The position numbers and the translations under genes were made by a program. From a virus (Duplodnaviria > Caudoviricetes), in IMG/VR virus record IMGVR_UViG_3300016667_000092, positions 1 to 60,820 of that record: a stretch of DNA of 60,820 bases. The stretch is one strand, 5' to 3'. This document shows positions 1 through 59,000 of the stretch, one piece after another (the first letter of the stretch is position 1; each line of letters starts with the position of its first letter). The notes under the pieces were generated by a model. That model ran no database searches. It had not been told where the DNA came from and worked only from the letters and a program-made list of their open reading frames with translations.

Positions 1-1105
1 AAAGCTTTAGTTGCATCTTTAGCACCACGAGCCAAAGCCTTGATCTGATTCTTCAGAGCCTGCTTCTCAGTGATAGTTACTTTGGTAACATCTTTCAGTC
101 TGCCAAGTATTCTATTGATTGATGGTGGTTCTTTGTAGGATTCAGCAAGCATACCATTCACCTGTCTGATGATGGCATCCTTCTGAATGTCGTCAGCTTT
201 CTTATATACATCAGACTTAGACACAAATCTCTTAACAAGATCAATCAACTCTTGACCTGATAGTCTACGCTTAAGGGCATTAGGGATAAGCGTGTTCACC
301 ACATCGTCAATCAGCTTCTCATATCCCGGTAGTCCTTCAGGTCCCTGCTCTACACGACGTGCCTGTTTAGTGGCAGCGGTAATAGGCGCAGCTTTCTCAG
401 TAGTAACAATCTCTTGACCTGTCTTAATAGACACTGCCATTTGATTAAAGAAGTCAATAACCTCTTTCTTGCTAGCCGTTTCGCTGAATGGTTTTATTAA
501 TCCATTAGTCAGCTCTGATACAAACTTATTAACTATAGCTGCAATCTTAGTGATAGTATCTATCTTGATTGACTTATCTTGATCAGCCATTACCGCAGCT
601 AGTTCAACCAACCACTCTTCGGGCTGCTCATTCTCGGCATATAGCTTAGCAAATGAATCTAACTTTTCAACGGTAGATCCTTTCAATACAGTAGTAAGTT
701 GGTCTCTGAACTGTCTGAACTTAGCCTTATTATCGCCAAATGTTTTAAGCATTACAGCGTGGGCTATTTCATGGTACACTGTAGTAGCGTTGGCTCTAGT
801 AAGATCAATGTCTATTCTTACATTAAGACTACCATCAGGGTTCTTACTATAGCTGAATAAACCAACAGAGTCTTGACCCTTAGTTAGTACTTTGGTTTGG
901 CGACTGTAGTCTTCTTGATTATCGAATATATAAATCTCACCGTTAGGGAACAAAGACTTGAATAGCTTAGCTACTGTTCTTATTGCGTCAATGACTGACT
1001 TTTTTCTAGCATCTTCAGCTACAGTAGTCTCTATATCTTTTACCCCTTGCTCATTTGTCAAAGGAGTCCCGTACTCAACCCTAGCTTTTACACCTTCTGC
1101 AGGGG
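1..1105. repeat. Terminal direct repeat, copy A (matches 59701-60820) with divergent core
   Basis: 1-356 nearly identical to 59701-60056; 958-1105 identical to 60673-60820; the middle ~600 bp is homologous but divergent and 15 nt shorter. Confidence 0.95.
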
Positions 1106-4100
1106 CTTGCCTTCCGGCAACTGCTCCGCCCACTGCGGTAGGGGCTGCTCCCACTCGCTCTCCGGCAGGTCCCCGTAAAGCAGATATTTCACGAGCCCTT
1201 TGTTCAGCACGTAGCCTCGCTCCTTCGCGAATTGCGTCACTTGATTTTTGAGTTTCAATTCCTGTTGACTTTCCCCAACTTGGGTTTGCGCTTCTGTTTC
1301 TTGCAATAAGTTCTGTTGCTCTTTCATATGGTGTTTGATTGTTAGTTCTAGTTTCTGTTATATAATCAAATGTTTTTTGCTTTTGCTCAGGAGTCCTGTT
1401 CTTATCATTGATACCAATACGTTGCGCCTCCCACGTAATAGACTGCATCTCTCTTGGCTTTATGCCTGCAATTCTAGCTGCATCAATATAGGCAGACTTT
1501 ACAAGGGCATACAATGGTTCAGCACCTCCGTTAAATAAACCAATTCCACCCGCATCATTAGCGGAGATTGGACTGTTAAGTGCTGCAGATAATGCGTGAG
1601 TGTCCGCTGTTACGTATGGTGTTTCAGAATCAGGATCTACAATATTGTTATAGAAGTTACGAACCTTATTACCACCACCCAATTCAGAGTTTATATTATC
1701 TATAGATCCATCCCTGAATATGCTAATAGCTTTACCTATCTCTGTGTTGGAGTTCCATCTAACAGGGGTAGTATCAAATCCTGTAAACTTTCCTTCAGGG
1801 TCTGTCATTGCAACCTTTGGAGAGTGTACCGCCTGATCAAATGCTCTAAGCATAGCAGCTTGTGTGTCTATACTTAATCCTTGATTCTGTAATTCATTAA
1901 TAGATACTTCACCATACTGATTGAATAAGTCCATTAAATCTTTAGCGAAACTATTAGGCTCTCCATTAGCGTCTGTATTATAAGCCACAGCTTTGCCTAC
2001 AATATCTTTAGTGAGCTTAGTGTCACCATATTTAGTCATCACTTCGATTGTTCGTTCAGCAACAGACACGTTATTGAACCAATCATTCTGAGGACTAAGA
2101 GCAGCTATGATACCACCAACCTGATCAATGCTAAGCTTATACTTCTGAGCAAGAGCTTGTGCCATTCTGTTAGCCCCTACATACCACTGCTTACTTTTCG
2201 CAATAAACTCAGGAGTCAATGAATCATACAGAGCTAACAGGTTTTGAACCATCATGTCCTTGAATTCAGCTAACTGTTGCTTTGCAGTTTTATTAATCTC
2301 TGCAGATATCTTAGCCTTCTCAGCTTTAGCCTCCTTGCTTGTTCCTTTAATTGCTTTATACTTCTCGCGAAGTTTGTTTAGTTTGTTAGTTATTTTTTGG
2401 TTTACAAATGGTAAACTAAAAGTTCTCTTCTCTCCCTTCTTTGTGTAGCTAACCTGCCCTGTTCCTAAGTTAGACGCGACTGTTACTACTCTGCTACTTG
2501 GTGCATGCTCCGATGATTCAATCTCTTCAGCGGTATAGTCTTCCGTATAACGCTCTTGCTTATCGGTAGATAGGTTTACAGTTGGGGCGTTAGAACCCTT
2601 GAATACAGGCTCAGTTCCTTGAGTAACAACTCCCGTCCCTTCAGTCTCAAGTGTGGTAGTTGCAGTAGGAAACTGAACCATTGGAGCCTGAGCCTTAGCT
2701 ACAGCAACTTCCTGTGTTTTCAAAGACACCTGTGGCGCACGATACATCGTGTCCTTTATGGTAAAGTCTTTATTCTCGCCCTTATTTTCTACAAAACCAA
2801 ACCTTTTATAAAAGTTAGTCAATCTTGAAACCGACTCACCGCCAAAGTCTATTGATGGTGTAAGAGTTATTTTAACCCCATTATCATCAGCATACTTGAT
2901 TATTTCTTCCATTACCTGCGTTCCAATACCTGTATCCCTTTGTTCTTCGGGTATTACAATTCTTGAAAGGGTCAGGTTGCCTTTATCTAAGCTCCCTAAT
3001 AGGTCTACTTTAACACCATACTTCTGCTCAAGCTGAGTAGAGAAATTAATAGGAGTTACTTTTTCTTGCGTGAGCGCAGGAGTGACTTGGGCTTCGGCCC
3101 CTGTGGTAGGGACTTGAGGTTTTTGGTCTCCTTCGCCCATTTCTTGCAATCCCAATTCGGGTCTTTGGCTGCGTAGCACGCCTTCATCTGTTGTTTGTTT
3201 TTGAATGGCATCTTCTGATATTTTTGTTAGTTGTTCATTAATTGCTGCAATACGATCGCGTTGTGGTTTAGTTAACGCCTGATCTTTTCCGTCTATAGAT
3301 CTTTCTAAATCTCTTCTCTCTCTCAAAAGATTCATTGCTTCTTTCTTTCCTTCTGTATCCAACCCCTCAGGAAGCGCACGGAATAAACCAATTGAATTAC
3401 GGTAGTCGTTAAGCGTTTCTTTAGCTTGATCTAATGTTATCTCTCCATTGTTTACTCTGTCCTTAAGACTAGTAACAAATGCTTTCTCAATCTTCTCATC
3501 ACCTGCTGCAGCCTCAAACAGCTTAAAGGTATTGTCATCCATACCCTTGAACCCTTGCTCACGATAAGCAGCAGCAACAGCAGATGGCATACCTAATACG
3601 AAACCTCCGATAGCTTCCTGCACACCTGCAGTCAGGATTTCCTTCACGTATCCTTTAACACTATCAGGAGTATCGAACATCTTCATAAACTCGCCATCCT
3701 CGTTTCTTTTATCCTTGATGACATTGTATACATCTTTTACTACAAGTTCTGCAGCTTGTTGCGCAGCACCTGTCTCAGCTTCTGCTAGTGCACCTCCGAC
3801 AATTGTGAGCGCACCTCTTGCAAGACCACTCTCTACTTCATTTTTTACCAAGTCACCAAAGGTCTTAGCAGTTGTAGTTGCACCTGCCTTCCCTAAAGCA
3901 CTCATCGTAAGTTTATTCAGTAGTCCTTTGTTGGCAATAATATTTCTGAAACCAATCTCTTCAAGTGCTGCTCCGGCAAGAGCAATAGGCGTAGAGATCA
4001 ACGCCTTCTCACGCTCACTAATATTTTTAAAGTCAGGGTCACTTTCCATCTCTTTCATCACAGCATCGTCTGTTTGTAAAAACATACGTACTGTTCTTGA

Positions 4101-5639
4101 GTACTTGTCTCCACCAAGAAACGAAGGCACAGATTCAAGCGCACCATATATAGCACCCGGCACTAATCCTTTTCTAATTTCCTGCGCATACTCTTCCGTG
4201 TCACCTGTGCCAATTGCTTTTACAGGAAGACCTCTAAGAATTTCTGTGATTGGTTTCCCTTCTATGTCTATCTGTTTTTCTTCTTTCTTTCTTTCATCAA
4301 TAAATCTAGACCTATATTCAGAAGCTTTGTCTCCAATACTATTTAACCATTTGCTAAAAGAAGTCTTAGATATGTTTCCATTTTTGTCACGCTCAGGAGT
4401 AGGCATACCTTCCTCTTCAGCATATTTAACGTAGGACTGAATAAGAGCAGGCTCTCCCGTAAATTCTCTTAAAGGAGTAACTACCTCTTCTAGTATGTCG
4501 ACCATCTGTCCGTAACCACCACTGATGATATTACCAATACCACGAAGAGGAGCATCGTATAGCTGACTATACCAAGTCCCCTGTTGGGCTTTCATCTCTG
4601 TATACTTACCAACAGCAGTCTCTAGCTGAGACTTTCTTTTGCCAATATCTCCCTGACGATCAGTAATAGATTGTGCTTGAGCTTGCAATCTCTGAAGCTC
4701 TGCTTGATATTTTTGAACTAATGTCTCTCTAGCAGGATCGTTAACAGGCATAGATGCTAACATCTTAGACTGCCCTTCTAATAATTTAGATGAACGGTAG
4801 TAGTCCTGAATATCTTTGTTAAGTTGATTTGCCTGAAATGATACTTGAGAGGTAGCTTCCTCTACTTCTTTGTCACTAATAAATTTCTTATTATCAACAG
4901 CATATTGTTTTTCAATCTCAGCAAGCTTTGCCTTTGGTAACGAAATGGTATTGTCTCTGATAAAAGCCCTAAGCTTTGCTGCTTCAGCAGTAGCTCCTGA
5001 TTCAGTCCAAGCATCTAAAGAGAAGCGAACTTTCTTTCCGTTAGGAGCTATAGCATCTACGTAATCACCAATACCCGCCTGCTCAAACTTAAATCCTAAT
5101 GGACCAAACTGATAGTTTAACTGTGGGACAACAACCTCTTCTCTCTTCTCAGCCATCTCAGGCTTCACTGTTTCAAGCAGTGGCTTTACATATTCGGGTA
5201 CAGCCTCTTCTTTTTTACGGGTAACCTCAGCCACCTCCTTTGGTAATACCAATGGTCTAGGTGCAGCAGTTGATACAGCAGCAGCTCTCTGTTGAGGGAT
5301 TAATAACTTAGGAGATTCTTGAGATGCCGATAAACCACCCTGCAATGACGATGCCATATCGGGGGCTTGCGCTTGAAGGACGCTTTGCTTTGGTTGTTTT
5401 TCTAGCTCCTGAGACAGTACTGCTGTTATCGGCAACTCTTTTTTTTTACTAGGGCCACCGCTAACCAAGCTACTAAACTCGGCAGGAGTTTCTACTAAAC
5501 CTTTTGAACGAGCATACCCAAACATATCTAAGTAAACCTCATCGTCATTTCCAAGAAGAGCTACAAACTCTTCACGACTTTTCTTGTATCCTTTATTAAG
5601 TGCTCGGTTATAAAGCTCGGTTATAAGATTCTCGTTCAT
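1..5639 (-). CDS. Giant polyvalent/internal virion protein, N-terminal part (runs off window start, continues in 56046-59700; ~3,100 aa in total)
   Basis: ATG at 5639 (MNENLITELYNRALNKGYKKS...); open frame that reads into TNEQGVKDIETTV, the same sequence that begins ORF 56046..60776; contains GNAT, glycosylase-like and HExxH domains; missing from the ORF track because it has no stop in the window. Confidence 0.88.
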   Translation of the reverse strand, partial: MNENLITELYNRALNKGYKKSREEFVALLGNDDEVYLDMFGYARSKGLVETPAEFSSLVSGGPSKKKELPITAVLSQELEKQPKQSVLQAQAPDMASSLQGGLSASQESPKLLIPQQRAAAVSTAAPRPLVLPKEVAEVTRKKEEAVPEYVKPLLETVKPEMAEKREEVVVPQLNYQFGPLGFKFEQAGIGDYVDAIAPNGKKVRFSLDAWTESGATAEAAKLRAFIRDNTISLPKAKLAEIEKQYAVDNKKFISDKEVEEATSQVSFQANQLNKDIQDYYRSSKLLEGQSKMLASMPVNDPARETLVQKYQAELQRLQAQAQSITDRQGDIGKRKSQLETAVGKYTEMKAQQGTWYSQLYDAPLRGIGNIISGGYGQMVDILEEVVTPLREFTGEPALIQSYVKYAEEEGMPTPERDKNGNISKTSFSKWLNSIGDKASEYRSRFIDERKKEEKQIDIEGKPITEILRGLPVKAIGTGDTEEYAQEIRKGLVPGAIYGALESVPSFLGGDKYSRTVRMFLQTDDAVMKEMESDPDFKNISEREKALISTPIALAGAALEEIGFRNIIANKGLLNKLTMSALGKAGATTTAKTFGDLVKNEVESGLARGALTIVGGALAEAETGAAQQAAELVVKDVYNVIKDKRNEDGEFMKMFDTPDSVKGYVKEILTAGVQEAIGGFVLGMPSAVAAAYREQGFKGMDDNTFKLFEAAAGDEKIEKAFVTSLKDRVNNGEITLDQAKETLNDYRNSIGLFRALPEGLDTEGKKEAMNLLRERRDLERSIDGKDQALTKPQRDRIAAINEQLTKISEDAIQKQTTDEGVLRSQRPELGLQEMGEGDQKPQVPTTGAEAQVTPALTQEKVTPINFSTQLEQKYGVKVDLLGSLDKGNLTLSRIVIPEEQRDTGIGTQVMEEIIKYADDNGVKITLTPSIDFGGESVSRLTNFYKRFGFVENKGENKDFTIKDTMYRAPQVSLKTQEVAVAKAQAPMVQFPTATTTLETEGTGVVTQGTEPVFKGSNAPTVNLSTDKQERYTEDYTAEEIESSEHAPSSRVVTVASNLGTGQVSYTKKGEKRTFSLPFVNQKITNKLNKLREKYKAIKGTSKEAKAEKAKISAEINKTAKQQLAEFKDMMVQNLLALYDSLTPEFIAKSKQWYVGANRMAQALAQKYKLSIDQVGGIIAALSPQNDWFNNVSVAERTIEVMTKYGDTKLTKDIVGKAVAYNTDANGEPNSFAKDLMDLFNQYGEVSINELQNQGLSIDTQAAMLRAFDQAVHSPKVAMTDPEGKFTGFDTTPVRWNSNTEIGKAISIFRDGSIDNINSELGGGNKVRNFYNNIVDPDSETPYVTADTHALSAALNSPISANDAGGIGLFNGGAEPLYALVKSAYIDAARIAGIKPREMQSITWEAQRIGINDKNRTPEQKQKTFDYITETRTNNQTPYERATELIARNRSANPSWGKSTGIETQKSSDAIREGARLRAEQRAREISALRGPAGERVGAAPTAVGGAVAGRQAPAEGVKARVEYGTPLTNEQGVKDIETTVAEDARKKSVIDAIRTVAKLFKSLFPNGEIYIFDNQEDYSRQTKVLTKGQDSVGLFSYSKNPDGSLNVRIDIDLTRANATTVYHEIAHAVMLKTFGDNKAKFRQFRDQLTTVLKGSTVEKLDSFAKLYAENEQPEEWLVELAAVMADQDKSIKIDTITKIAAIVNKFVSELTNGLIKPFSETASKKEVIDFFNQMAVSIKTGQEIVTTEKAAPITAATKQARRVEQGPEGLPGYEKLIDDVVNTLIPNALKRRLSGQELIDLVKRFVSKSDVYKKADDIQKDAIIRQVNGMLAESYKEPPSINRILGRLKDVTKVTITEKQALKNQIKALARGAKDATKA
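430..960 (-). other. Zincin-like metallopeptidase (MPTase-type) domain in giant protein, allele A
   Basis: TTVYHEIAHAVM (HExxH at 759-773) followed by EEWLVELAA. Confidence 0.7.
1088..1327 (-). CDS. Small acidic protein nested (+1 frame) in the giant gene
   Basis: 79-aa ORF with A-rich upstream (AGAACTAACAATCAAACACCAT-ATG); the giant frame over this stretch is a low-complexity R/A/G linker. Confidence 0.55.
   Translation of the reverse strand: MKEQQNLLQETEAQTQVGESQQELKLKNQVTQFAKERGYVLNKGLVKYLLYGDLPESEWEQPLPQWAEQLPEGKPLQKV
1410..2260 (-). other. HhH-GPD DNA-glycosylase-like domain (DUF7178-like) in giant protein
   Basis: Motifs SKQWY..ANRMAQ, IIAALSPQNDWFNN, GNKVRNFYNNIVDP, VTADTHA, PREMQSITWEAQR. 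Confidence 0.55.
2735..3055 (-). other. GNAT acetyltransferase domain in giant protein
   Basis: LSRIVIPEEQRDTGIGTQVM (motif A, RxxGxG) and LTNFYKRFGF (motif B). Confidence 0.75.
3056..3211 (-). CDS. Small basic protein nested (+1 frame) in the giant gene
   Basis: Manual translation MPFKNKQQMKACYAAKDPNWDCKKWAKETKNLKSLPQGPKPKSLLRSRKKK* (51 aa); A-rich upstream; resembles small phage proteins of the MPFKS.AQ...AK.W.KET...K.LP type. Confidence 0.65.
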   Translation of the reverse strand: MPFKNKQQMKACYAAKDPNWDCKKWAKETKNLKSLPQGPKPKSLLRSRKKK

Positions 5640-17615: not shown

Positions 17616-19049
17616 TTAAGCACCGTAGCGGAACAACACGAAGTTGTTAGCACCCAAGGTACATACGCAACGCTCAGAGAGGAAGTTAACCTCCATTGCA
17701 TCGAGGTCGCTAGTCTGTGCACCACCGGCAGAACCTGTGATCCAAGTTTTGTAGCGACGATCTTCAGCTTCAGTAGCGCGGTAGCGAACGTGTAAGAACG
17801 GACGCTTAGCGTTTTTGCCGAGGATTTGATCGTACACGGTAGTAGAACCTGCAGGAACCAACAATCCTGTTACAGTACCTGTAGCAGAAGAACCTGTAGG
17901 CAGACCACCACGCATTGTAGGATCGTTCAGATATTTCCAATCAGACTTGTAGAAGTCATAACCACGACGGAAACCGCTGAATCCAAGATTCAATGCCATC
18001 TCTGTGTCGTTGTCAAACAGACCGAAGGAAGCTGAATTAGCAGCACCTGTTCCGTTGAAACCGTTCAGAGTTGCAAGCATATCGTCGATATCGAAAGAGA
18101 ACTCACGATTAACGAAAATCACGTTCTCCTCGATAGAACCTTGCTTGTCAAGGCGAGAGATGATGCTGTCGAAGTCAGCAAGAGTTGTGGGGTTACCACC
18201 GCCCCATACGTTACCACGGTTGTTTACAACGTAGAACACACCCTCAGAACCTTTGTTACCAAAGTTAGGGTTGATGGCAGCGTTAGCAGCACCTGAACCT
18301 GACTCAGCAGGAACAGCCTCGATCATTGCAGTCTCAAGGTAGTCCTCAAAACGCAGACGAGTTTCGTGCTCACTCTTCAAATACCACAAGTATCCTGTAG
18401 CTCCGTTCTCGGTAGTGATTTCAACCCAACCGATCTGAGCCATATCAGAACCGCTTACAGCGTACTTGTCCTTGATGATGATTGGAGAGTTTTGGAAGAT
18501 ATCATCTTCAGCCTCCAAAGAACCTACCATTCCGATAGTTCCTTTCTTGAACTCAGAACCATAGATCCATACGGTACAAGTAGCAGTGATAGCAAAAGTC
18601 TGACCACCTGCCTCATAGTAAGCAACATCGAACTCGCCTGTAGTAGTGTTAACTGCAGTAACGATACCCTTGTTGCTAAGACCTGTAGCATTGTCAGAGA
18701 TGTTTACAGTCTGACCGGGACGGATTGCGATAGCAGTAACACCTGCATCACTAACCGTGATAGTAGCAGAGTCAGAACCTGCAGCAGCACTAGTAGCACA
18801 ATCAGTGTACTTGGTGTGCAAACGTCCTTGCTCAGCCCACTTGATAAGGTCAGAGTTAGAAGGCATCTCAGCTCCTACCATGCGGAGGAAAGATGCAACA
18901 GTACGATTACCATAACGCTCGAATTCCTTCTCGTAAGTATCAGGAAGATACTGATTCAAGAAGTCGAAGTTGGTAATATAGTTTGTAGATAATGGGACCT
19001 GCTCAGCACTTGGCTGCAGCTGATATCCCGGGGTTGGTAAAACAGCCAT
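17616..19049 (-). CDS. Major capsid protein
   Basis: 477 aa after portal and scaffold; QYLPD.YEKEFERYGNR, KWAEQGRLH, SER.VCTLGANNF motifs; strong codon bias. Confidence 0.85.
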   Translation of the reverse strand: MAVLPTPGYQLQPSAEQVPLSTNYITNFDFLNQYLPDTYEKEFERYGNRTVASFLRMVGAEMPSNSDLIKWAEQGRLHTKYTDCATSAAAGSDSATITVSDAGVTAIAIRPGQTVNISDNATGLSNKGIVTAVNTTTGEFDVAYYEAGGQTFAITATCTVWIYGSEFKKGTIGMVGSLEAEDDIFQNSPIIIKDKYAVSGSDMAQIGWVEITTENGATGYLWYLKSEHETRLRFEDYLETAMIEAVPAESGSGAANAAINPNFGNKGSEGVFYVVNNRGNVWGGGNPTTLADFDSIISRLDKQGSIEENVIFVNREFSFDIDDMLATLNGFNGTGAANSASFGLFDNDTEMALNLGFSGFRRGYDFYKSDWKYLNDPTMRGGLPTGSSATGTVTGLLVPAGSTTVYDQILGKNAKRPFLHVRYRATEAEDRRYKTWITGSAGGAQTSDLDAMEVNFLSERCVCTLGANNFVLFRYGA

Positions 19050-19063: not shown

Positions 19064-20209
19064 TTATGCTTTTTTAATACTGCGGATTTTTAAATTTCTG
19101 CCGTTACCCGCATCGACGGCTTTTACTTGGACTCCTCCCTTATTGATAACCTCAGGAGTTTTGCGATCAGACATGTTAATGTTCTTAATCTTACGCATAC
19201 TGCTCTCTGTGGCATCCGACATACCTTGCTCATAAAAGAACTTGGCAAATCGTTCGGGGTTCATCGCGATAGACAAAGACCTGTGGTATCCTGCAGCATC
19301 CTTCATAAGCCCGTTCTCGTCCAAGAATTTACCAATGAAACTCATAGGACTTAACTGCGACTTCTTCAGCTCAGTGGCATCACCGGGTGCAAACTTGAAC
19401 GTCTTATCATTTAGCTTGAACTCAAAACCTTTGAACTCATTACTAAAGACCTCGTCAGTTTTCTGTTGAAACCACTTGCTCTTACGCTCGGCTTCCTCTT
19501 GTTGAGTCTTTGCCTGTTTTACATATTGCTTATAAGCTTCAAATTCTTGTTTCTCTGCGTCAGGAATAGATGCCGTACTTGACTCAAGGGGCACTTTATA
19601 TTTTTCCTTCTGCTCGTTGAAGAACTTTCTAGCTTCAGCAACAGCTTTTTTCTTAGCGATCTTTACCTTCTTAACGCGAGACTCATCGTCGATGTCTTCA
19701 TCATACTTGTAGTCATCCATCAAGATATCAATATCCTCATCGTCTAATCCCTGCTGAGTAGCAGTAAGATAGTTCCTGAGAATCTGATCAGGGTCCATAG
19801 ACTCGTAATCTTTGTTCAACTTCAAGAAGTCTTCAAAGCCACGGCCTGTCTCCTTGCGGTATTTTAAATAAGCAGCTACATCGGCAGGGACATCTTCACC
19901 TCCCTTGCGTTCTGCAACCAACTCCTCAAAGGAATTGATTTGCTTATTGTATCGCTTTTCAATATATGAAAGAACTTTTTTCTCGTCTAGATCAATCTCA
20001 TCGGAACCACCATCGTCTTGACCACCGTCCTGACCACCCATCTGACCACCGTCTTGACCATCATCATCTTGAGATTGCTGAGCTGCTGCAGCAGCTGCTG
20101 CTTCGTCAGCATCTTTTAATGACTGTTCGTGTTTCTCAAGAAGTTCTTTTTCAACTTCCTGTACACCTTTAGGTTCTCCCGTTTCAACTGCTCTTACTTT
20201 GATTTCCAT
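19064..20209 (-). CDS. Capsid scaffolding protein
   Basis: Acidic, coiled-coil protein between portal and capsid genes; FFYEQG motif; DGGQ repeats. Confidence 0.7.
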   Translation of the reverse strand: MEIKVRAVETGEPKGVQEVEKELLEKHEQSLKDADEAAAAAAAQQSQDDDGQDGGQMGGQDGGQDDGGSDEIDLDEKKVLSYIEKRYNKQINSFEELVAERKGGEDVPADVAAYLKYRKETGRGFEDFLKLNKDYESMDPDQILRNYLTATQQGLDDEDIDILMDDYKYDEDIDDESRVKKVKIAKKKAVAEARKFFNEQKEKYKVPLESSTASIPDAEKQEFEAYKQYVKQAKTQQEEAERKSKWFQQKTDEVFSNEFKGFEFKLNDKTFKFAPGDATELKKSQLSPMSFIGKFLDENGLMKDAAGYHRSLSIAMNPERFAKFFYEQGMSDATESSMRKIKNINMSDRKTPEVINKGGVQVKAVDAGNGRNLKIRSIKKA

Positions 20210-20254: not shown

Positions 20255-22690
20255 TTATCGAGGCTCAAATTCAGCGAAGTCGAACCCGTCCAAGCTATCC
20301 TCGTTGGACTCAAAGTCCATTGGAGGCAGATTGTTCTTTCTTTGATTGATTAGCTTCGACTGCTCGGTATTCTGTTGGCTTATCCTTTTAGACTTAGCTG
20401 TTTCTTTCAGGTCCTCTCTCTGCTTCATAGCTCCCTCTTTCATGGAAGATAGCTGCATATTATACGCGAACTCAGTCTCCATTAGCATCTTCTTCAGCTC
20501 AGCTTCAGCTTTCATCTTCTCAATCTCAAAGGCAATCTCTGCCTGCTTGATCTGCATCTTAGACTGCGCCTCGGCCTGTATCTTCTGCATAGCCGTTTGG
20601 GCTGCCATCTGCTGAGACTGTAAAGCCTGTTGAGCTGTGATTGCTTGCTTCTGCATAGCCATCTTCTCCTCGCGCTCTTGCTTCTTCTGTCTCTTCAGCT
20701 TCAGTAGCTGATTAGCTAGCTTCAGGTTCTTAATCTCCCTGATGTCGATAGCATCCTCCAAGTTGATATCACCCTTAGACAAAGCCATCTGAATGTTAGC
20801 CTCAAGCTGTGCCTTCTGCTCTTCGTCAGGAGATACCTCGATGAAGATACCAAAGTCGTATACGTACAAGTCCTTAATCTCGTTAAGGATAGATACGTTA
20901 TACTTGCCAATCTTATTTGCGAAGTCATCCTTGAAGTCAGCATACTCTAAGATGTCAGCTACACGGTAGGTCAAAGCCTCAGCCATAGACCTATAGATAT
21001 ACAGACCACCCTCAAGGATATGTCTAGTAGCTGTGTTAGAGTTAAGCGCAGCCAACTTCTGTAAACCAACCAAAGAGTTGGGGTCAGGCATAGAACCGTC
21101 ACGGGCTTCATTAAGACCCGTCACAGACCTGATCATATTCAGATAGTGGTTGTAGTTACCAATCAGCATCTGTGTCTTACTAGCCCCTGAGTTAGAGGTA
21201 AGCTGCTGAATAGGAACCCTAGCATTATTAAAGTCGCCATCCTGCGTATAGCTACGACCGATAACACTACCCGTTTGGAAGTAGAGTCTCAGCGCATCCT
21301 CAGGATTGTAAGCGTTACCTGTTCCTAAATCAACTTCATTCAAGCCATCGGCATCAATAAACACACCATCAGGAACGGTACGCGCAATAACTTGTTGGAG
21401 TTTCAGGTGAGTAATCTGAATAAGGTCAGCGAAAGGAACCATCCTTCTAACCAACGACTCGATCACTCCCTTATACATACGAGGTGCACAAGCCACGTAG
21501 TTTGGAATCGCGTGCTGAGTAGCAGACTTAGGTCTTACCATATTCTCAGCAATCTCCCACTTAAGCAGGATGTTAGTACCCATAACGAGCACTCCGTTAT
21601 ACCAAACATCAATGGTCTTCTCTACCTTTTCAAAGTTACCCTCCTCCATCATCTCTACAGGAGGATTAAAACGATCATCCTTTTCAATCATTCTACTGCC
21701 ACCACCCTCTAATACTTTCTTCTTGTATACAATCTTCTTAGTTGACTTGTAGTTGAAGTACAACAAAGTAGCTGTATCTCTATAGAAAATAGAGTTCTCG
21801 TAGAACTGAGCAATATTGAAATAGTTATACCAACTCTGACTGTACATAGATATCTCTTCCAAGTCTTCTCTTGTCAGCGTTGGATCAATCTTCATTAATT
21901 CAGTAATAGGCAAAGTCTTAATCTCACCCCAATAGAAACAATCTTTAAAGAATGGATCTTCAGTGTAACTGTATACAATGTTGGCGGGGTCTACATATGA
22001 AATCTCAACACCTGCACCGGGAAGAAACTCATGCTTAGCACAACCAATACCTAATACGGTAAGGTCATAGTCTATGCGCTTGCGTAAATCCCAATACTTG
22101 TTCTCATCCATGATGGTATTGATTGCCTCCTCTTCGGCAATCTCAATAGCAGGCTTATAGTTAAGCTGCATATAAAGACTAAGTTCCTCATCAGTTTCAG
22201 GGAGTTCCTCAGGGTCCATCACGAATGGATCAACGCCTGTGTTCTCCTGTATCTTGGTTAAGATATCTTTGGCAGCCATCTGCCCCTCAATCATATCCTG
22301 ATACTTGTTACGCTTAGACTGAGACATTGCATCCTGAGCATAAGCCTTAACCTTAAACAGTCTGTCAGACATACCGTTAACAACGATGTCAACAAACTTA
22401 GGGATGATAGGAACAGGAGTCCAATCAAGGTTCAAGTATGACAGGTCGCCATCAATAGCAAGCTCGTTCTTATATTTTTGAACGGACTGCTCACCACGAG
22501 CGTATAAACGTAAACGATGAAAATCACGCCATTGACTATAGTATCTACATTGATTTCCATCTTTACGGAACCATTCGTACTGAATAGCTTGACCTACTAA
22601 AAGACCAAACTCATACGTGTCCTTCTCAGCATCGGGAACAAACTGACTAGGGAACCCTGTAGATGCTATGTTTATAATTACGTCTTTCAT
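20255..22690 (-). CDS. Portal protein
   Basis: 811 aa after terminase; LNLDWTPVPIIPKFVDIVVNG, IRSVTGLNEARDG; Gln/Met-rich C-terminal helical barrel. Confidence 0.85.
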   Translation of the reverse strand: MKDVIINIASTGFPSQFVPDAEKDTYEFGLLVGQAIQYEWFRKDGNQCRYYSQWRDFHRLRLYARGEQSVQKYKNELAIDGDLSYLNLDWTPVPIIPKFVDIVVNGMSDRLFKVKAYAQDAMSQSKRNKYQDMIEGQMAAKDILTKIQENTGVDPFVMDPEELPETDEELSLYMQLNYKPAIEIAEEEAINTIMDENKYWDLRKRIDYDLTVLGIGCAKHEFLPGAGVEISYVDPANIVYSYTEDPFFKDCFYWGEIKTLPITELMKIDPTLTREDLEEISMYSQSWYNYFNIAQFYENSIFYRDTATLLYFNYKSTKKIVYKKKVLEGGGSRMIEKDDRFNPPVEMMEEGNFEKVEKTIDVWYNGVLVMGTNILLKWEIAENMVRPKSATQHAIPNYVACAPRMYKGVIESLVRRMVPFADLIQITHLKLQQVIARTVPDGVFIDADGLNEVDLGTGNAYNPEDALRLYFQTGSVIGRSYTQDGDFNNARVPIQQLTSNSGASKTQMLIGNYNHYLNMIRSVTGLNEARDGSMPDPNSLVGLQKLAALNSNTATRHILEGGLYIYRSMAEALTYRVADILEYADFKDDFANKIGKYNVSILNEIKDLYVYDFGIFIEVSPDEEQKAQLEANIQMALSKGDINLEDAIDIREIKNLKLANQLLKLKRQKKQEREEKMAMQKQAITAQQALQSQQMAAQTAMQKIQAEAQSKMQIKQAEIAFEIEKMKAEAELKKMLMETEFAYNMQLSSMKEGAMKQREDLKETAKSKRISQQNTEQSKLINQRKNNLPPMDFESNEDSLDGFDFAEFEPR

Positions 22691-24984
22691 CTAATAAGTT
22701 GACTTGTATGACCATTGTTGGTATACCTAGCAAAATTAACGCTAATTTTTGTTTCTTTTTTCTCAGGTAAATATAAGTGTCTTTGGTTAGCCATGATTGC
22801 CAATCCTGAACTAATCGAGGCATCGAACTTAGTACGATCGCTAATATCAAACTTAGCCCAATCCTCAAGCGTTCTATTAAATGGCATAGACCCCATCTGA
22901 TCAGGCTCCCTGTATGTACCCGTTATATCTAACCCCACGTGCTTCTCGATATAGGACTCGATGGCAGAGGCGTGAGCCTGCTTTACATCCTCACTTGAAT
23001 TCGGAATTCCTCCGAGTTCCCTCTCTGTTTTTGACAACTTGCTGAAATGCCTGTCAGGTCTGTTCATACAGAAGTGACGATAGCCCCTGTTCTTAAAGTG
23101 ATACAGTAGCCTAGGCTTATTGTTCTCTATCAGGATCGGCATCCCATAGAATACGCAAGCCATTAGCACCTCCTCAAAGAATACCTCAGCAGTCTGAGGA
23201 CGGGCTATGTATTCTAGGAAGAACTCGTTGATAGGAGCGTCTAACATATGGAACTTGGTCATCCCGTGCAGAGAACCATTAGAACCTCTACCCCCAACCA
23301 CAGCCGAGATATCGTAGGAGTCACAACCGAAGGACCCTATGTGCTCGTTACCGGGATACTTAAGACCGCTTCTTATCTGCACATTGTTCTGTAAGTTATT
23401 GGCAGGAACCCAACTGATCAGGAACCTACCCCTCTCGTCAGGAGCCCACACTACTTTAGAGTCCTTGATCCCATCCTTCCAATGGAACGAACCTCTAGTC
23501 AGGTAGTGCTCCTTAACCATAATATCGTTATAGTCAATCTGCTGATATATCTTGGTCAGGTTAAACAGAGCCTGCTTACTCTCATCCCTGAAGGCATGGC
23601 TCTCGGTGCGAGGAAACTGACGATAGAATTCGTTGAGGGCATCGGGGTCATTCTTTAATGAATCCACCTCAGCTTCCCAATAGTCGATGGCTCCGTTGGT
23701 AATCCAATTCCCATCAACTCCCTTCACAGGCTGCTCACGTTTCCTGAACACGGGCATCCCGTAAACATCAATAAAGCCTTCCATGTTCCACTCCATCGGA
23801 ATAAACAAGGAGTACATTCCACTCTTAGTCTGCCCGTTGGCATTCCTATCAGAAAGGTTTGAGTCTTCGTATAGTTTCTTGTAGTTGTCACCTCCTTTGC
23901 TCAAAGCATTTGAGGTAGATCCCATTAGACACTTTCCGATAATCTTACTACCCAAGCGAAGACAGGTCTTAGTGACACGCCAATTGTTTAAGATATTGTT
24001 TGGCTTAGTCCACTTAGCACTCTCATCATGAGCGAGCAGTAGTAGCTTCTCCCCATCGTATGAGTTCTCTTCTGTATTCTTCCAATCGATTGTGGTATCA
24101 AGACCGTCCACATCATCGTCAGACTGAGTGTACATATTCTTCTTTGTGATCTTAGAGGCAGGAACCCTGTATGCCAACTCCGTCTTTGGCTTGTCCATAC
24201 CATCCATCACAGGCTTGAAGAAGAACGGCAACCTATTGTTAATTGGGACTACCTTGTCGGTAAACATCTTCTTAGCGTCCGCACCCGTCTTAGACAGTAT
24301 TCCCACCCTAGAATCACGAGCTAACGTACCTATGTTGACACACTCCGATGCCGACATAAAAGAGAAACCCGAACGACGAATCTTCAGGTAGATCATCCCG
24401 AAGCAACGAGGGTCAGCCTTACACGCCTCCCAAAATATAAAGAAGATTCTATTAGCTTCTCGGAAGTCAGGGTATCCGATGTCTATACTAGCCCACTGAA
24501 GATACATCCAATGAGCCCCTGTTAGATACGTAGGCTTTCCATTGTTCATAAACCAAAAGCCCTGTTCTCTATAATCAAACTGACACTCTATGTAATCAAC
24601 CCACTTGTCCTTAAACTCTACAGGCATATCATTCCATTGGAAGATTGACTGTATCTTAGCCAACTCCTTAGGTAGCTCCTGCCTTTCCCAATACTGATTA
24701 GCAGGCTTAGAGTCTCTTTGAAGAGACTCCTCAGGCTGTAGGGGTAATGCAATAAATAGACCTGATATGTTTACAATGTCTCCAATCTGCCCGGTCTTAG
24801 ATATGATGACTAGGTCATACTGCTCATTATACCCATACTGCCAAGCCCTAGAAGCGTTCTTCTTACTTATCACATTTGGAGAAACGTATCCATCGGCAAC
24901 ATAGTAAAGACTATTTACGACTTCTTCTTTCTGCAAATCCCTGTTTTGTTTCTGTTCTTTGGACACCTTTTTCTGACATTTCAA
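22687..24984 (-). CDS. terL: Terminase large subunit (start uncertain, non-ATG)
   Basis: Walker A-like KIRRSGFS, Walker B LLAHDES, coupling motif GSTSN, nuclease GCDSYD and C-terminal FDASISSG. Confidence 0.9.
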   Translation of the reverse strand: MKCQKKVSKEQKQNRDLQKEEVVNSLYYVADGYVSPNVISKKNASRAWQYGYNEQYDLVIISKTGQIGDIVNISGLFIALPLQPEESLQRDSKPANQYWERQELPKELAKIQSIFQWNDMPVEFKDKWVDYIECQFDYREQGFWFMNNGKPTYLTGAHWMYLQWASIDIGYPDFREANRIFFIFWEACKADPRCFGMIYLKIRRSGFSFMSASECVNIGTLARDSRVGILSKTGADAKKMFTDKVVPINNRLPFFFKPVMDGMDKPKTELAYRVPASKITKKNMYTQSDDDVDGLDTTIDWKNTEENSYDGEKLLLLAHDESAKWTKPNNILNNWRVTKTCLRLGSKIIGKCLMGSTSNALSKGGDNYKKLYEDSNLSDRNANGQTKSGMYSLFIPMEWNMEGFIDVYGMPVFRKREQPVKGVDGNWITNGAIDYWEAEVDSLKNDPDALNEFYRQFPRTESHAFRDESKQALFNLTKIYQQIDYNDIMVKEHYLTRGSFHWKDGIKDSKVVWAPDERGRFLISWVPANNLQNNVQIRSGLKYPGNEHIGSFGCDSYDISAVVGGRGSNGSLHGMTKFHMLDAPINEFFLEYIARPQTAEVFFEEVLMACVFYGMPILIENNKPRLLYHFKNRGYRHFCMNRPDRHFSKLSKTERELGGIPNSSEDVKQAHASAIESYIEKHVGLDITGTYREPDQMGSMPFNRTLEDWAKFDISDRTKFDASISSGLAIMANQRHLYLPEKKETKISVNFARYTNNGHTSQLIR
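24712..24727. repeat. 16-bp palindromic motif (perfect, intragenic)
   Basis: GTCTCTTTGAAGAGAC. Confidence 0.9.
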
Positions 24985-35800: not shown

Positions 35801-35811
35801 TTTTTTTGTTT

Positions 35812-36158: not shown

Positions 36159-36626
36159 ATGAAATCAGACTACCTCAAGTATTGGAGAGTCGTTCGCTAT
36201 TACGTAAAGGCTAAGTACGGGATATCTCAAGCAGACCTTGAGTTCCTGCTGTTCCTATACTCAGAGTCCTACTTCAGTAAGGACAAGTTCCGTGAGTTCG
36301 ACAAGCTGATATCATGGGATAGGCACAGGTTCGATCGCCTGCGCCAAGAAGGATGGATAGGTGTGTTCAGACCTAGAAAGGGGAAACGCAAAGCCCTGTA
36401 CGAGCTTACCTACAAATCAACTAGAATGATTCAGTCCGTATACAAAAAATTGAATGGGGATGAGATACCCACTGACTTAGGAAACAACCCCCTGTTCTAC
36501 AAGAATGTGAAGAGCACCGACAAGATATATCGGAACATGATCCTTCAGATGAACGAGTACGTCCGAAAGAATAACAAAGAAAAAAGGATGAAGCCTCAGA
36601 CTACAACCACCACATCCCTTTCCTGA
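36159..36626 (+). CDS. Winged-helix (MarR-like) DNA-binding protein
   Basis: YGISQADLEFLLFLY...FDRLRQEGWI.VF....KALYELT; only plus-strand gene in the late arm; TATTTTTG at 36122-36129. Confidence 0.65.
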   Translation: MKSDYLKYWRVVRYYVKAKYGISQADLEFLLFLYSESYFSKDKFREFDKLISWDRHRFDRLRQEGWIGVFRPRKGKRKALYELTYKSTRMIQSVYKKLNGDEIPTDLGNNPLFYKNVKSTDKIYRNMILQMNEYVRKNNKEKRMKPQTTTTTSLS

Positions 36627-36856
36627 ATCACAGTATAGGTCTCGTTCCCAATCATCATAGAGAACCCGTGACCCTTATCGTAATAGATCACGTCTCCCTC
36701 GTTGATGTTGTTCACATCTGTGCCGGGCTTGACCACCTTTGCCTTTTGGTATCTAAAGCTTTTGGCATCCTCTGCCGACAGTAGCAGACCTGAGTTGGTC
36801 TTCACCTCCTCGTCCTTGATCTCCGTGATTACAATGTACTTACCTATTGGTTTCAT
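36596..36856 (-). CDS. groES: Co-chaperonin GroES
   Basis: MKPIGKYIVI, KTNSGLLL mobile loop, KVVKPG, GDVIYY, IQERDVVVVV. Confidence 0.85.
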   Translation of the reverse strand: MKPIGKYIVITEIKDEEVKTNSGLLLSAEDAKSFRYQKAKVVKPGTDVNNINEGDVIYYDKGHGFSMMIGNETYTVIQERDVVVVV

Positions 36857-37137
36857 AATGTATTAGATTCATCGTCAATATCAAAGTGGTCCTCCACGAA
36901 TATGGGAGTTCTGTCCCCAAAGTCAACATCCTTCAGGCTGTACTCCACAAAGTCTACCGCGTCCATGTAGTCATAGCCTTTGTCCACAAGTATCTGTATG
37001 CACTTCTTCACCGAGTATACCAACACTAAAGTCTCAGCTTCTACCCCAATGACCGCATCGTCAAAACCCTCAGGCTTGATGAACAACTCATCGGGATAGA
37101 AGTCCACGATCTTAGACAGTAGCGTTTGCTTGCTCAT
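36853..37137 (-). CDS. Conserved hypothetical protein
   Basis: GFDDAVIGV...LVYS.KKCI.IL...AVDF..Y...G.RTPIFV. Confidence 0.65.
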   Translation of the reverse strand: MSKQTLLSKIVDFYPDELFIKPEGFDDAVIGVEAETLVLVYSVKKCIQILVDKGYDYMDAVDFVEYSLKDVDFGDRTPIFVEDHFDIDDESNTL

Positions 37138-38740
37138 AGCTTCTTGCCATTGTGATGATAGCATTAGTTGATAGTATCGTGGTAGCCACACTCACCGCGT
37201 TTTGCAAAGCTGAGCGTGTCACCTTCAGCGGATCAATGACACCCATCTCAATGAGGTCACCCATCTGTCCTGTCTTCAGGTTATACCCATGACCCACAGG
37301 AACCTCGCCATTGTAGACAGCACTTGGTTTAAGTCCTGCGTTTATTAGTATCTGTTGGAACGGAGCCATGAGCGCACTAACTAAAATCTGAAGTGCCACC
37401 TGATGTTCAACACTTTTTTTCACCTCATCGATAGTTGAATACAACTCAGCACTCTCATCAAGCAAAGCCTTACCCGCACCGGGAAGTATACCTTCCTCAA
37501 GCGCAGAGCGCACCGCACACACCGCATCGTCAACACGGTCGTACAACTCCTTCTGCTCAAGATCAGTGTTTCCACCTACGTAGATTACACCAATGCCTCC
37601 TGTCAGAGAAGCAATACGCTCAAGGATGAAGTCCTTGTCCTGCTTCTTCACCGCCTCACCATGCGCCTTCCAAAGCTGAGCCACCCTCTCCTCAATCTTC
37701 GCCTCGTCAACTTTCTTGTCACTCTTCAAGATGATGGTCTTGTCCTTACCCACCACCACCTTAGCAGCATGACCTAGATCAGCGTAAGTAATTATACTTA
37801 GATCATCGCCCGTCTTCTCGCTGAAGTAAGTAGCACCAACACTCACCGCAATGTCCTGCATCAGCTCGTGCTGACGGTACCCAAAGCTAGGAGGTTGTAT
37901 GGCGCATATCTTCAAGTTGTTCTTAAGCACGTTGGCAGCTAAAGTATTCACCACGTTCTTGTGGCAAGGGGATATGATCAGAAGCTTCTTACCCTCTTGG
38001 ATGATTGGCTTCAGTACGTTCTCAATCTGAAGTATGTTGGCAATCTCAATGTCAGCCACTAGCACCATCACATCCTCAAGCACACACTCGTCTCTTCCCT
38101 GATCGTTGATGAACAGCGGACTGAGGTAGCCCCTGTCAACCTTCAACCCTTTAGTGGTCTCGGCATAGGTCTCAAAGCTCTGAGACTTCTCCACCGTCAC
38201 AATACCTTGACGGCCCACGTCCTGATATACCTCAGCAATAATCCTTCCAATCGAAGGGTCGTTGTTGGCAGAGATGGTCGCCACATCCAACATCATGTCA
38301 TCGCTAAGCTCTCTACTCTTGGCCTTCAACTTCTCCACCACCGTATCGGATAACTCCACCAACGATCTCAACACCTCGGTCACATTGTGCCCTTCTTTGA
38401 TGTGATCAAGACCCGACAGTACCAACGCCTCAGTCAGAACGATCGCGGTCGTAGTGCCGTCGCCTGCGCTTGTAGCGGTACGCTCAGATGCCTCCTTCAT
38501 AATCTTCACCGCCAAGTTCTCGACAGGGTCAATTAGATCAACAGCCTTCGCAACTGTGACACCATCCTTTGTAACCGTAATGCCGTGTGTGTGATTAGGA
38601 GCCTCAATCAAAACTGTGTTACCGCTAGGACCTAGCGTACTCTTCACAGCCTTGGCAATCTTCTTGATGCCTGTAACAAGCTTGGCTCGCCCGTTTGAAT
38701 CGAAGTGCAACTCCTTCGGTGAATAGCCCATTGAATCCAT
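37112..38740 (-). CDS. groEL: Chaperonin GroEL
   Basis: VKSTLGP.G, TKDGVTVAK, AGDGTTTA, EEGILPG.G, GVIDPLKVTRSALQNA. Confidence 0.95.
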   Translation of the reverse strand: MDSMGYSPKELHFDSNGRAKLVTGIKKIAKAVKSTLGPSGNTVLIEAPNHTHGITVTKDGVTVAKAVDLIDPVENLAVKIMKEASERTATSAGDGTTTAIVLTEALVLSGLDHIKEGHNVTEVLRSLVELSDTVVEKLKAKSRELSDDMMLDVATISANNDPSIGRIIAEVYQDVGRQGIVTVEKSQSFETYAETTKGLKVDRGYLSPLFINDQGRDECVLEDVMVLVADIEIANILQIENVLKPIIQEGKKLLIISPCHKNVVNTLAANVLKNNLKICAIQPPSFGYRQHELMQDIAVSVGATYFSEKTGDDLSIITYADLGHAAKVVVGKDKTIILKSDKKVDEAKIEERVAQLWKAHGEAVKKQDKDFILERIASLTGGIGVIYVGGNTDLEQKELYDRVDDAVCAVRSALEEGILPGAGKALLDESAELYSTIDEVKKSVEHQVALQILVSALMAPFQQILINAGLKPSAVYNGEVPVGHGYNLKTGQMGDLIEMGVIDPLKVTRSALQNAVSVATTILSTNAIITMARSYEQANATV

Positions 38741-56045: not shown

Positions 56046-59000
56046 TTATTCGCCAAACTTACCACCACCAAAGGACTCTCCTTTCTTTTTCTGTCCTCCG
56101 AACTTACCTCCACCAAAAGCTCCACCTTTTTGTTTAGTAGTATATTGATAGAGATCATCCTTGATGTCTCTTACAATATCATCAATCACATTATCAATTA
56201 ACTTGTCTTTGTAACCTTCTGTGTTTAAGAGATTGAACACCCCTTCCTCTCCAAAGGTTGCCTCGTACATTTCAGGGTCATACCTTCTCATGTCAGTCTT
56301 GCTCTCATACCCTTGAAGCAGAAGCTTCTCTAGTTCTTTCTTATTACCAAAAGTCTTTTTGCTTTTCTCTAAATCTTTATACAACTCTTTCAGCATTACG
56401 TTCCTTGCATCCTTGTATAATGGGATATATCCAAGATTGCCGAGAACTTCAAAAGGAATACGAATACCAATTTCTTTTCCTCTTGTCTCTTCAAACTTTT
56501 CCTTCTTTCCTTTTATACCAAGCTGCTGCTTAATAAGCTGCTTCAATGTTTCAGGCTGCTTCTCTTCTTCCTTAGGTGCGCCCTTCTTAAGTATTCCTTT
56601 CTCTAGGATTAAAGTTCCTGTTCTAAGAGCAGGCCCCATAGATCCACCCATCCTAGCTACTAAATCCATAGCTGAAGTATTGGCTGCTGTCTTTGGATCA
56701 ACAGGAATCATAGAGTATTGGATCGCATCCTTGTACGGATCGTACTCTCCGTTCCTTAAGAACTCAAGGAATTCAATATTCATTTTCTCTACTCCATAGT
56801 TCACTACATTCTTAGTGGCATTACCGAAGTCTCTACCGAAAGCAAGTGATGTGAATGTGGATGCTAATCCCTGCCCTATCTTCTGAAGCAAACTCTTCTC
56901 ATCTTCCGGCTCCTCATCATCATTACCCCATACCATCTTAGTTAGTGCGTTAGTAAGCATCGGGGTAAGGACAGAGTATACAGTCATCCTTAAAGTAACA
57001 GCTGCTAACAACTTAACCCCTTCAGCTCTTGATATCATGCCTCTACCCATAGCAGCATAGATACCTGTCCTAGCATTTACATAGTCATTGATCAAGAACC
57101 TACTCATGAAGTTGTTAAAGTTATTGAAAGCTCTAGCCCATGCGCTCTGATTTCTAGTAGCAGTACCCTTAAGGATTCCCATGAAAGGATTATCTGTGCC
57201 ACCCATTTTTATAGAAGCATCATCAGCTTGGTCTCTAGCAAATTGAATGGCTGCAACATTCTCATTCATGTACTGCTCATCGTTGGCAGCTATCTTATCA
57301 AAGTCAGGCTTTGATCCTGTCATCTCTTCAAAAGCTAAAGCGAAAGAACCAAACCAAGTTGGTCTCATTATAGACTTATCGGGAGTAGATATTAAAGTAT
57401 CTGCTGTAAGCTCAACGAAGTTCTTCTGCTTCTTTAATGTATTGTTGTATATCTGCTGAAGCTTACTAGCTAAGAATCCCTTCGCTCTGCTTCCTCTGAT
57501 ACCACTAGTCTGATTCAGGATTGAAGGGTCAATCATTTGTCCACTCAAACTACCCGCAGGGTAAACCCTTGTAGTGGCAGAACTCTTTACGTTCTTCATT
57601 ATGTCAACGCCATCAGGACTAGCAAACACATCAAAGTATTTTATACCCTCACCAAACTGCTTTGAATATGCAGTAAGCGCAGCGGATACGTTACCTGTTA
57701 ACTCCCCTATAAACCTCGGCACACTTGCAAGTACAGCTCGGTATCCCTGTCTAGATATCTCGTCAACAATCTCTTCAGCCAATGTCCCCTCTTTGAAAGA
57801 CGTGATAAGCGTAGTCTCAACAGCTCTTTCTAAAGCTTGGTTAAACGCATTGAAGATTTTATATTGCTCACTAGTAATACCTTTGTCTTCCTCAAGCTTT
57901 TTCTCTACTTGATTTATGGTCTTTCTTACAGTTCTGATCGGAGCAGTAAGATGGTAGTCCATCAACTGACTAGACACAGCCTGATTAACAGACTTAAGAA
58001 TATCAAACTCGATAGCCTTAGCACCGGGGGTTCTTTCCATCAGCGACTTCGCTCTTGTGGATGGGTTCATCCTTGAGTTGAAGTTACTGATCGCGTCAGC
58101 ATCAGCCATCGCCTCAGTAGGAGAAGACTCAATCATTACATCGTGATGGATGTAGTTATTAATTGGAGTAAACTTCTCACCCCTTAGAACACCTGCGATA
58201 TACTCAGCCTTCGATGTCATCTCCGCGTTGATATCTTGGATAGTCTTGATGGCTTTTTTCTCAGCCTCATTGAACGAGTTGTATAACTTATCAGCATCTA
58301 TCTGACCATCGGTACTATAGTTCGTAACAATATCCTGAAGCATCTCGGCATCACGCTCACTGTAGCTAGTCTTCCCTTTTCTTATCTTCTTTATAGTAGC
58401 ATCAAGAAACTCAATAGCAGGATTAACCTTGTTGGATTCAGGGTTACTCAGGTATTCCAACTGAAGAAGGTAAGCTGTCATCTTATACTTAGACATCACA
58501 ACCTTGTCGCCATCGTTTCTAAAAGACTTCTCAACAGCTTTAAAAGCTTTGTCTAATCTTTCCTGCGTACTAATAACAGATGATTTGAAAGTTGCATACG
58601 CATCAGTAATTGGCTTAAAGATAGCGTCGTATACAGCCCTTGTGTTAAAGTCCCCCAACAACTGATCATAATAATACGTAGGGTTTCTTTCAAACATCAG
58701 CGTAATAGCATCCCTCTTCCCCCTTAATATTAAGCTCTTCAACTTAGCATACATCTTTGACAGAGGAAGAAGCTTTGCTTTCTTTATTGATTGAACCACC
58801 CTATCAGATGGTATAGAAGCATCCATCTTCTCAATCATCAACTGAGCGTAGTTAGGAAGGAAGCCATTGTTGATATTGTCAATAACCCTAAGAAGATTCT
58901 TAAGCTCGTTATTTGTTAAAGCATTAAGAGAATCTGTGCTTCTTAAAAGTCTCTTCAATTTATTAGCAGTATCCCTTTCGTCTCTGCTAGGCAAAGTAGT

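Follow-up and report, generated by a model that had tools for sequence, protein, structure and literature searches.

The window analysed here, the ~60.8-kb virus record IMGVR_UViG_3300016667_000092 from IMG/VR (Duplodnaviria; Caudoviricetes; 60,820 nucleotides), carries on its minus strand a 51-codon open reading frame (ORF) at 3211..3056 that we read as a genuine, independently initiated protein-coding gene, nested one base out of frame in a giant virion gene of the polyvalent or ejection type. From the comparative sequence evidence set out below, we put the probability of this reading at about 0.86. The ORF is intact, starting at ATG (3211..3209) and ending at TAA (3058..3056), and translates to MPFKNKQQMKACYAAKDPNWDCKKWAKETKNLKSLPQGPKPKSLLRSRKKK*, exactly the peptide given in the initial annotation, which had proposed a complete small gene in the +1 frame of the giant ORF and left its strand unstated. 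It sits entirely within the minus-strand giant ORF 3..5639, and the offset between the two, (5639-3211) mod 3 = 1, places it in the +1 frame; a whole ORF with its own start and stop is here contained in a longer same-strand ORF read in another frame. Length by itself is unremarkable, the giant gene holding other same-strand alternative-frame ORFs of 41–79 codons, and it is because of the comparative evidence, not the length, that the nested ORF was judged to be above chance. The window holds a single copy of this family, referred to below as the MPFK family.

The nested arrangement is conserved across relatives. A peptide-alignment scan of IMG/VR, with 323 matches confirmed of the 599 pattern matches listed, identified at least 323 viral contigs encoding a relative of the nested peptide, and 80 loci were kept for comparison. 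Every one contains an intact ATG-started ORF, of 41–52 codons in 79 of them and cut by the locus end at 43 codons in L040. In all 80, an own-frame stop lies 1–27 codons upstream of the nested ATG and the frame one base upstream is open across the nested ORF. The enclosing ORF measures 2000–4150 codons in most loci; some 27 loci have as host a gene of roughly 390–408 codons between the portal and capsid genes, homologous to the 381-residue scaffold-position protein of the window (31% identity, E 9e-44). A second scan seeded with distant family members added 77 new loci, 74 of which are nested in the same frame relation; among the other three, an indel has probably put one ORF in the other frame, and the host frame is truncated or interrupted in two. 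The initial annotation would have been contradicted had stand-alone homologues been lacking and the +1 frame been broken by stops in close relatives; the ORF is kept intact in homologous giant genes, and free-standing homologues exist. At loci L119 and L128 the host frame is interrupted, possibly by a natural frame change or by an assembly error. Records were also sampled through the portal gene (20255..22690), for which at least 599 relatives occur in IMG/VR (80–92% identity for the best 80). Eight of the 13 larger portal-sampled records hold a nested MPFK-type ORF, verified as nested in the giant frame for seven of the eight copies, and these copies fall into three subtypes: the Cys type, to which the window belongs, a "PELAKKW" type and an "RRWMY" type.

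Conservation at the nucleotide level begins at the nested ATG. In 74 unique segments anchored at this codon, mean column identity is 0.33–0.46 over positions −120 to −13, rises to 0.58 over −12 to −1, reaches 0.92 over the first 12 bases of the nested ORF, and is back to 0.30–0.46 past about +108. The 36-codon core (MPFK...SLP; 3104..3211, minus strand) accordingly forms an island of conservation, with column identity of 0.61–0.92 compared with 0.30–0.46 in its flanks, and its 5′ edge is the ATG itself. It is followed by a variable Lys/Arg-rich tail that includes the stop codon (3056..3103).

The segment upstream of the ATG (3212..3241, minus strand), the putative internal translation-initiation region within the giant ORF, is A-rich, G-poor and predicted to be unstructured. 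Among the aligned segments, A occurs at frequencies of 0.93/0.85/0.92 at −13/−12/−11, 0.73 at −6, 0.88 at −5, 0.82 at −3 and 0.81 at −2, and G is nearly absent from −24 to −8. Baez et al. (2019) report that A at −3, −6, −12 and −13 promotes initiation in F. johnsoniae, as do an A-rich stretch at −14 to −11 and low structure, and the nested start shows the Bacteroidia-type features: the A positions, the A-rich stretch, no Shine-Dalgarno sequence and low mRNA structure. With a matrix built from 35 ATG gene starts of the window, the nested start scores 5.27 bits, compared with a median of 4.95 for true starts, and only 0.21% of 975 internal ATGs reach its score. Predicted folding energy over −30 to +20 is −1.41 kcal/mol versus −5.72 kcal/mol in other windows of the same genes, the start being the less structured in 67/67 unique sequences. 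The A-rich start that had been described as Bacteroidota-style, AACAACTAACAAAAATATCAGAAG-ATG, is present, in a context that is Bacteroidia-like by conservation, matrix score and folding. Because an in-frame stop lies as near as one codon upstream and conservation begins at the ATG, the simplest reading of these sequences is that ribosomes initiate independently at the conserved ATG.

Substitution patterns in the two frames identify the small frame as the constrained one. Within the 36-codon core of 68 unique sequences, small-frame entropy at codon positions 1/2/3 is 0.44/0.33/0.81; the giant-frame wobble position is therefore the least variable and the giant-frame first position the most variable. 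A site-class analysis was modelled on OLGenie, a method reportedly introduced by Nelson and colleagues in 2020, using 69 unique sequences (2346 pairs) and two-letter classes that mark a change as nonsynonymous (N) or synonymous (S), the first letter for the small frame and the second for the giant frame. The p-distances were 0.137 for NN, 0.154 for NS and 0.593 for SN sites. The resulting small-frame NN/SN ratio is 0.23 (codon bootstrap 0.14–0.36; 0.13 with Jukes–Cantor correction), whereas the giant-frame NN/NS ratio of 0.89 (bootstrap 0.55–1.42) indicates no amino-acid-level constraint; the frame-specific comparison of nonsynonymous and synonymous change that the initial annotation had suggested thus places the constraint in the +1 frame. 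Differences at positions 1/2/3 follow the same order in five sequences of the PELAKKW subtype (85/48/142 pairwise differences), three of them obtained via the portal or the giant downstream region and two via family-model scoring of portal-sampled records. Three sequences of the third subtype gave 27/18/27.

The giant frame, for its part, is held open. It is free of stops across the nested ORF in 68/68 unique ORFs, and the exact probability of such an open frame, computed for each peptide from the pooled host-ORF codon usage, has a mean of 0.0003, a median of 0.0001 and a maximum of 0.002. A small-frame wobble T that would create a giant-frame TAA, TAG or TGA (before AA, AG or GA) was found at 0/751 positions, as against 135/967 in harmless contexts and a background share of 0.50; this test is independent of how the loci were retrieved. 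Judged from these patterns, the small frame is under purifying selection, and the giant frame is selected only for being open and hydrophilic, so that both readings carry constraint, as the proposal of dual coding had anticipated. In a single-sequence AlphaFold model of giant-protein residues 740–1000, the overlap has a predicted local distance difference test score (pLDDT) of 32–43 and no secondary structure; a helix precedes it, and a folded GNAT-like region (pLDDT 64–75) follows. The giant frame here, ...SEDAIQKQTTDEGVLRSQRPELGLQEMGEGDQKPQ... as originally quoted, agrees well with its earlier description as a disordered linker.

Two alternatives in which the +1 ORF would be untranslated or irrelevant can be set against these data. 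The first holds that a conserved giant-frame motif of the form DAIQ.Q..., such as a processing or binding site, is what selection maintains, and that the +1 ORF is its shadow; a DAIQ-type string does recur in the giant frame of all three subtypes. Against it, the wobble position of the giant frame varies least and its first position most, and the ratio of 0.89 for that frame is indistinguishable from neutrality next to 0.23 for the small frame. Conservation also sets in at the nested ATG, and non-nested homologues of the peptide exist. We regard this explanation as extremely unlikely. The second supposes conservation as DNA or RNA, either as a recombination linker for cassette shuffling or as an RNA structure, with neither reading mattering. 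In its favour, loci share no related giant-frame sequence just past the nested gene, the segment stands at a cassette boundary together with a VSLKTQ linker, and positions +50 to +100 inside the nested ORF (~3110–3160 of the window; 67 loci) are predicted to fold more strongly than average (−9.4 to −9.8 versus −5.7 kcal/mol), possibly through composition alone. A nucleotide-level element does not, however, predict a three-base periodicity locked to one frame, nor an invariant ATG, an upstream in-frame stop and four-fold wobble variation (for example at codon T29), and as a substitute for coding it is very unlikely. A role in recombination could coexist with coding.

The peptide belongs to a real and widespread family, in keeping with its reported resemblance to small phage proteins. 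An exhaustive phmmer search of 1.84 billion representatives (cut-off E≤1e-3) returned 137 matching protein clusters (best E 7.8e-12), in nearly all of which query residues 1–40 align to position 1 of proteins 38–1359 residues long. A word-indexed search gave three near relatives at 76–84% identity. Family members occur both as free small proteins and as in-frame N-terminal modules, and the fetched sequences share the pattern MPF.SK.Q.+.C.A..D..W.C..W..ET...K.LP followed by a basic tail. In sets of 64 and 17 sequences, the latter spanning the three subtypes, P2, F3, Q8, W25, T29, L35 and P36 are invariant or near-invariant, with C12, W20 and C22 added in the Cys subtype; the window peptide (P0001) bears all of them, the Cys-subtype residues included. 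The family hidden Markov model gives the window ORF 85.1 bits, the window peptide being one row of that model. Long members carry YkuD, Phage_lysozyme2, ART-PolyVal, Peptidase_C39, MuF, ParB_N and GNAT domains. P0100 has the module in an internal, in-frame position, followed at once by a GNAT domain, and the nested ORF likewise lies immediately before the GNAT-like domain of the giant protein. The long MPFK-headed proteins P0012, P0015, P0022, P0024 and P0030 share a 'QFSTLGQIDPVPVQNFQPN' block and a C-terminal 'HKGYCTPMTKSTCT' block, for neither of which a Pfam family was found. In P0029, the N-terminus of a scaffold-position protein continues in frame into an MPFK peptide, perhaps through a natural frame change or an assembly error.

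AlphaFold2, run on the 51-residue peptide with a 64-sequence alignment, predicts two short helices within the core (residues 6–15 and 22–28), with a mean pLDDT of 76.9, 82–85 over residues 1–30 and 54–61 in the tail. The peptide is 31% Lys plus Arg, with an isoelectric point (pI) of 10.3. On this modelling the product would be a two-helix, Lys-rich module protein. Tentatively, and somewhat short of an even chance, it may act as a basic virion-internal or DNA-associated helper of packaged or ejected proteins; we suggest this because of its basic tail, the association of the module with packaged polyvalent and MuF-type proteins and its position among late structural genes. An o-spanin (Rz1-like lipoprotein) was considered and rejected, as inspection revealed no hydrophobic stretch before C12, the N-terminus being MPFKNKQQMK, and no signal sequence or lipobox. 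Membership of DUF3008 (PF11450) was likewise unsupported. An ESM Atlas feature search placed a DUF3008-labelled cluster at rank 20 (score 0.91; 37% of its members bear the family), and DUF3008 proteins presumably have a similar start, 'MP.KSKAQ'; hmmscan at E≤0.1 to 1 returned no DUF3008 match for P0001, the 64 family members or three Cys-less variants.

Another reading is a frameshift isoform, in which ribosomes starting at the nested ATG would slip by −1 in the terminal run of Lys codons and produce an N-terminally truncated giant protein headed by the MPFK module, mimicking the in-frame fusions. The module does head long proteins with enzymatic domains in other phages, a −1 shift from the small frame leads exactly into the giant frame, and the tail is composed of AAA and AAG codons. 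The Lys-rich tail is also found, however, in free-standing and in-frame homologues, and so needs no frameshift; in the window sequence itself the tail reads G AAA AAG and not the canonical X XXY YYZ; and the region +125 to +200, past the stop, folds no better than average (−5.0 to −5.6 kcal/mol), leaving no apparent stimulatory structure. We consider this isoform quite unlikely.

For a separately made small protein, the order of events would be as follows. The late structural mRNA would be translated from the giant start, and the segment read as a disordered acidic linker (DAIQKQTTDEG...). Some ribosomes would load separately at the unstructured, A-rich, Shine-Dalgarno-less region within the linker, make the 51-residue product and stop. 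That product would comprise a two-helix module (MPFK..Q..C..W.C..W.KET...LP) and a disordered Lys/Arg tail, with a pI of about 10.3. The module would be older than the host reading frame, existing elsewhere as a free small protein or as an in-frame N-terminal or internal module, and the giant ORF would read through a pre-existing gene, the small ORF not having arisen inside it. The host ORF most likely reads through an older gene because the module is widespread in non-nested and in-frame forms and the host reading is unconstrained. The initial annotation's phrase, that the giant protein "engulfed a working gene", is supported to this extent by the family distribution and the unconstrained host reading; the direction of evolution, with the older small gene engulfed, is the most likely one.

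Several observations weigh against the nested-gene reading or against its generality. Internal initiation within a translated ORF is an assumption. Most comparative loci were retrieved via the peptide itself, which biases the set towards a conserved small frame, and the less-biased portal sample is small, at 13 records. AlphaFold confidence for the 51-residue peptide is only moderate. No Pfam or PHROG model covers the module in the peptide, the 64 family members or the three Cys-less variants, and fold searches suggested no function, finding only uncharacterised small viral proteins in BFVD (best E 0.024) and nothing below E 4.8 in the PDB. Finally, G003, a complete genome of 57,294 bp with terminal repeats (loci L274–L276) and a portal ~81% identical to that of the window, has a 2718-codon ORF but yields no MPFK-type ORF at E≤1. 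Some phages can therefore do without the nested gene, which is accessory.

The giant gene that hosts it (3..5639, minus strand) is represented by its 5′ part, 1879 codons that run off the window, of which codons ~810–862 are co-encoded with the nested gene as a low-confidence linker. Like giant polyvalent genes, it is a very long ORF among the structural genes, and linkers separate its several unrelated domains of enzymatic or unknown function. The protein matches phrog_10691 (4.8e-36) and carries DUF7178 on residues 1124–1207. A GNAT acetyltransferase-like domain (residues 885–956; 2772..2987, minus strand), a sub-threshold Pfam GNAT match, forms the cassette directly downstream of the nested gene and is closed by the giant-frame linker motif VSLKTQ (2712..2729, minus strand), which recurs in other giant genes. 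The motif, as VS[LS]KTQ, is present in 16/51 unique giant ORF pieces (for example at L015, L016, L023 and L048) and looks like a second conserved cassette boundary. The other piece of the giant ORF lies at the far end of the window (56046..60818, minus strand), and positions 1–1120 and 59701–60820 overlap by ~1.1 kb. The outer parts of this overlap are identical and its middle (about columns 355–960) diverges and contains a 15-base indel, so that two variants of one giant-gene cassette have been joined in the assembly, in a region with an HExxH-like motif.

The surrounding gene map, drawn from PHROG matches, places the terminase large subunit at 22687..24984 and the portal gene next to it, followed by the 381-residue scaffold-position protein (19064..20209), whose copy in the window is without a nested ORF, and a capsid-type virion protein (17616..19049). 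Further virion proteins continue the structural block, with the giant gene last. A podovirus-like phage of roughly 60 kb, related to the Flavobacterium Elemovirus phages, is the best explanation of the source; the cultured relatives with the peptide are confined to 68 Flavobacterium phage vB_FspP_elemo records, alongside one uncultured record, and an elemo phage is among the loci with the nested ORF (L081). Over the peptide match, two inspected GenBank elemo records annotate just the giant "structural protein" coding sequence, as expected if gene callers miss the small ORF, although some pipelines have called it (P0003–P0005). Elsewhere in the window, six small Lys/Arg-rich minus-strand genes (34652–36134; 51–111 codons, pI 9.75–11.15) adjoin ORFs labelled from their translations as GroES-like (36596..36856) and GroEL-like (37112..38740). 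The nested peptide had been assigned to the same Lys-rich class; it resembles these genes in composition and is homologous to none (phmmer scores <5 bits).

The gene's distribution among close phages is uneven. Five genomes of the scaffold-hosted type have exactly one copy each, and one such genome, G017, also has a 3006-codon ORF without a copy. A scan with giant-protein residues 870–1340 recovered 26 loci, of which four have a nested MPFK-type ORF within 3 kb and the other 22 a different architecture. Scanning with the protein encoded upstream of the giant gene found no relatives, and a search for the DUF7178 segment in four genomes gave no match, a result uninformative either way. At L267–L273, compared with the window, portals are 80–92% identical yet three strongly divergent nested-gene subtypes occupy the same kind of site, which suggests cassette exchange rather than vertical divergence. 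It is possible, if less likely than not, that the MPFK gene is a portable dual-coded cassette whose −1 frame has been shaped to be stop-free and hydrophilic and which is recombined into disordered linkers of late structural genes. Such a cassette would borrow the transcription of its host gene while bringing its own start site. It would explain why close phages (portal 80–92%) have exactly one copy, in a giant ejection-type gene or in a scaffold-position gene, or none, why three divergent subtypes are exchanged, and why the cassette marks the boundary of shuffled domain modules. If so, it would be the out-of-frame counterpart of the in-frame polyvalent module, the two being alternative genetic routes for delivering the same protein with packaged effectors.

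In phage lambda, Rz1 is embedded in Rz in the +1 frame. Kongari et al. (2018; PMC6139136) treat the lambda Rz/Rz1 two-component spanin genes as an embedded architecture. The gene described here resembles that pair in being a complete small gene with its own start, wholly inside a larger same-strand phage gene in another frame. Both products of Rz/Rz1 are needed. The present case differs in that the nested protein is, by inspection, without a signal peptide or lipobox, that the host is a giant virion or scaffold-position gene and not a lysis gene, and that the nested module, apparently the older of the two readings, is found in host genes of two kinds. The in-frame MPFK-type module of polyvalent and MuF-type proteins (P0100, P0106, P0112 and P0123) is the same sequence module; there it is part of a polypeptide and without its own Met, whereas in the window it lies out of frame and has a start and stop of its own. 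The term 'polyvalent proteins' is reportedly due to Iyer and colleagues in 2017. Overprinted genes of small phages include phiX174 B in A and E in D, and are said to have been reviewed by Pavesi in 2021. Those genes share with ours same-strand dual coding in which one frame bears most of the constraint; their nested frame is classically young, whereas here it is conserved and widely distributed, and the unconstrained linker is the host frame, in a 60-kb genome with no obvious pressure on its size. To our knowledge, tailed phages offer few fully nested out-of-frame genes for which both readings are strongly supported, and outside Rz/Rz1 annotation mostly ignores them. A literature search, which left supplementary tables and any virion proteomics in them aside, found no description of this peptide or of nested genes in polyvalent or giant virion genes. 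The embedded-gene theme is known from lambda, and its occurrence in a giant virion gene is apparently undescribed.

Conserved in hundreds of uncultured aquatic phages and in 68 cultured Flavobacterium phage records, the gene is accessible to testing at the bench. It would reverse the usual story of overprinting, with a hidden frame that is old and constrained and a giant reading that is an unconstrained linker, and it would offer both an example of a Shine-Dalgarno-less initiation region embedded in a translated ORF and a positive control for overlapping-gene searches. The virion or late-gene repertoire of the Bacteroidota phages gains a small protein family that had no name before, and the case suggests that more genes can lie hidden in polyvalent-protein linkers.

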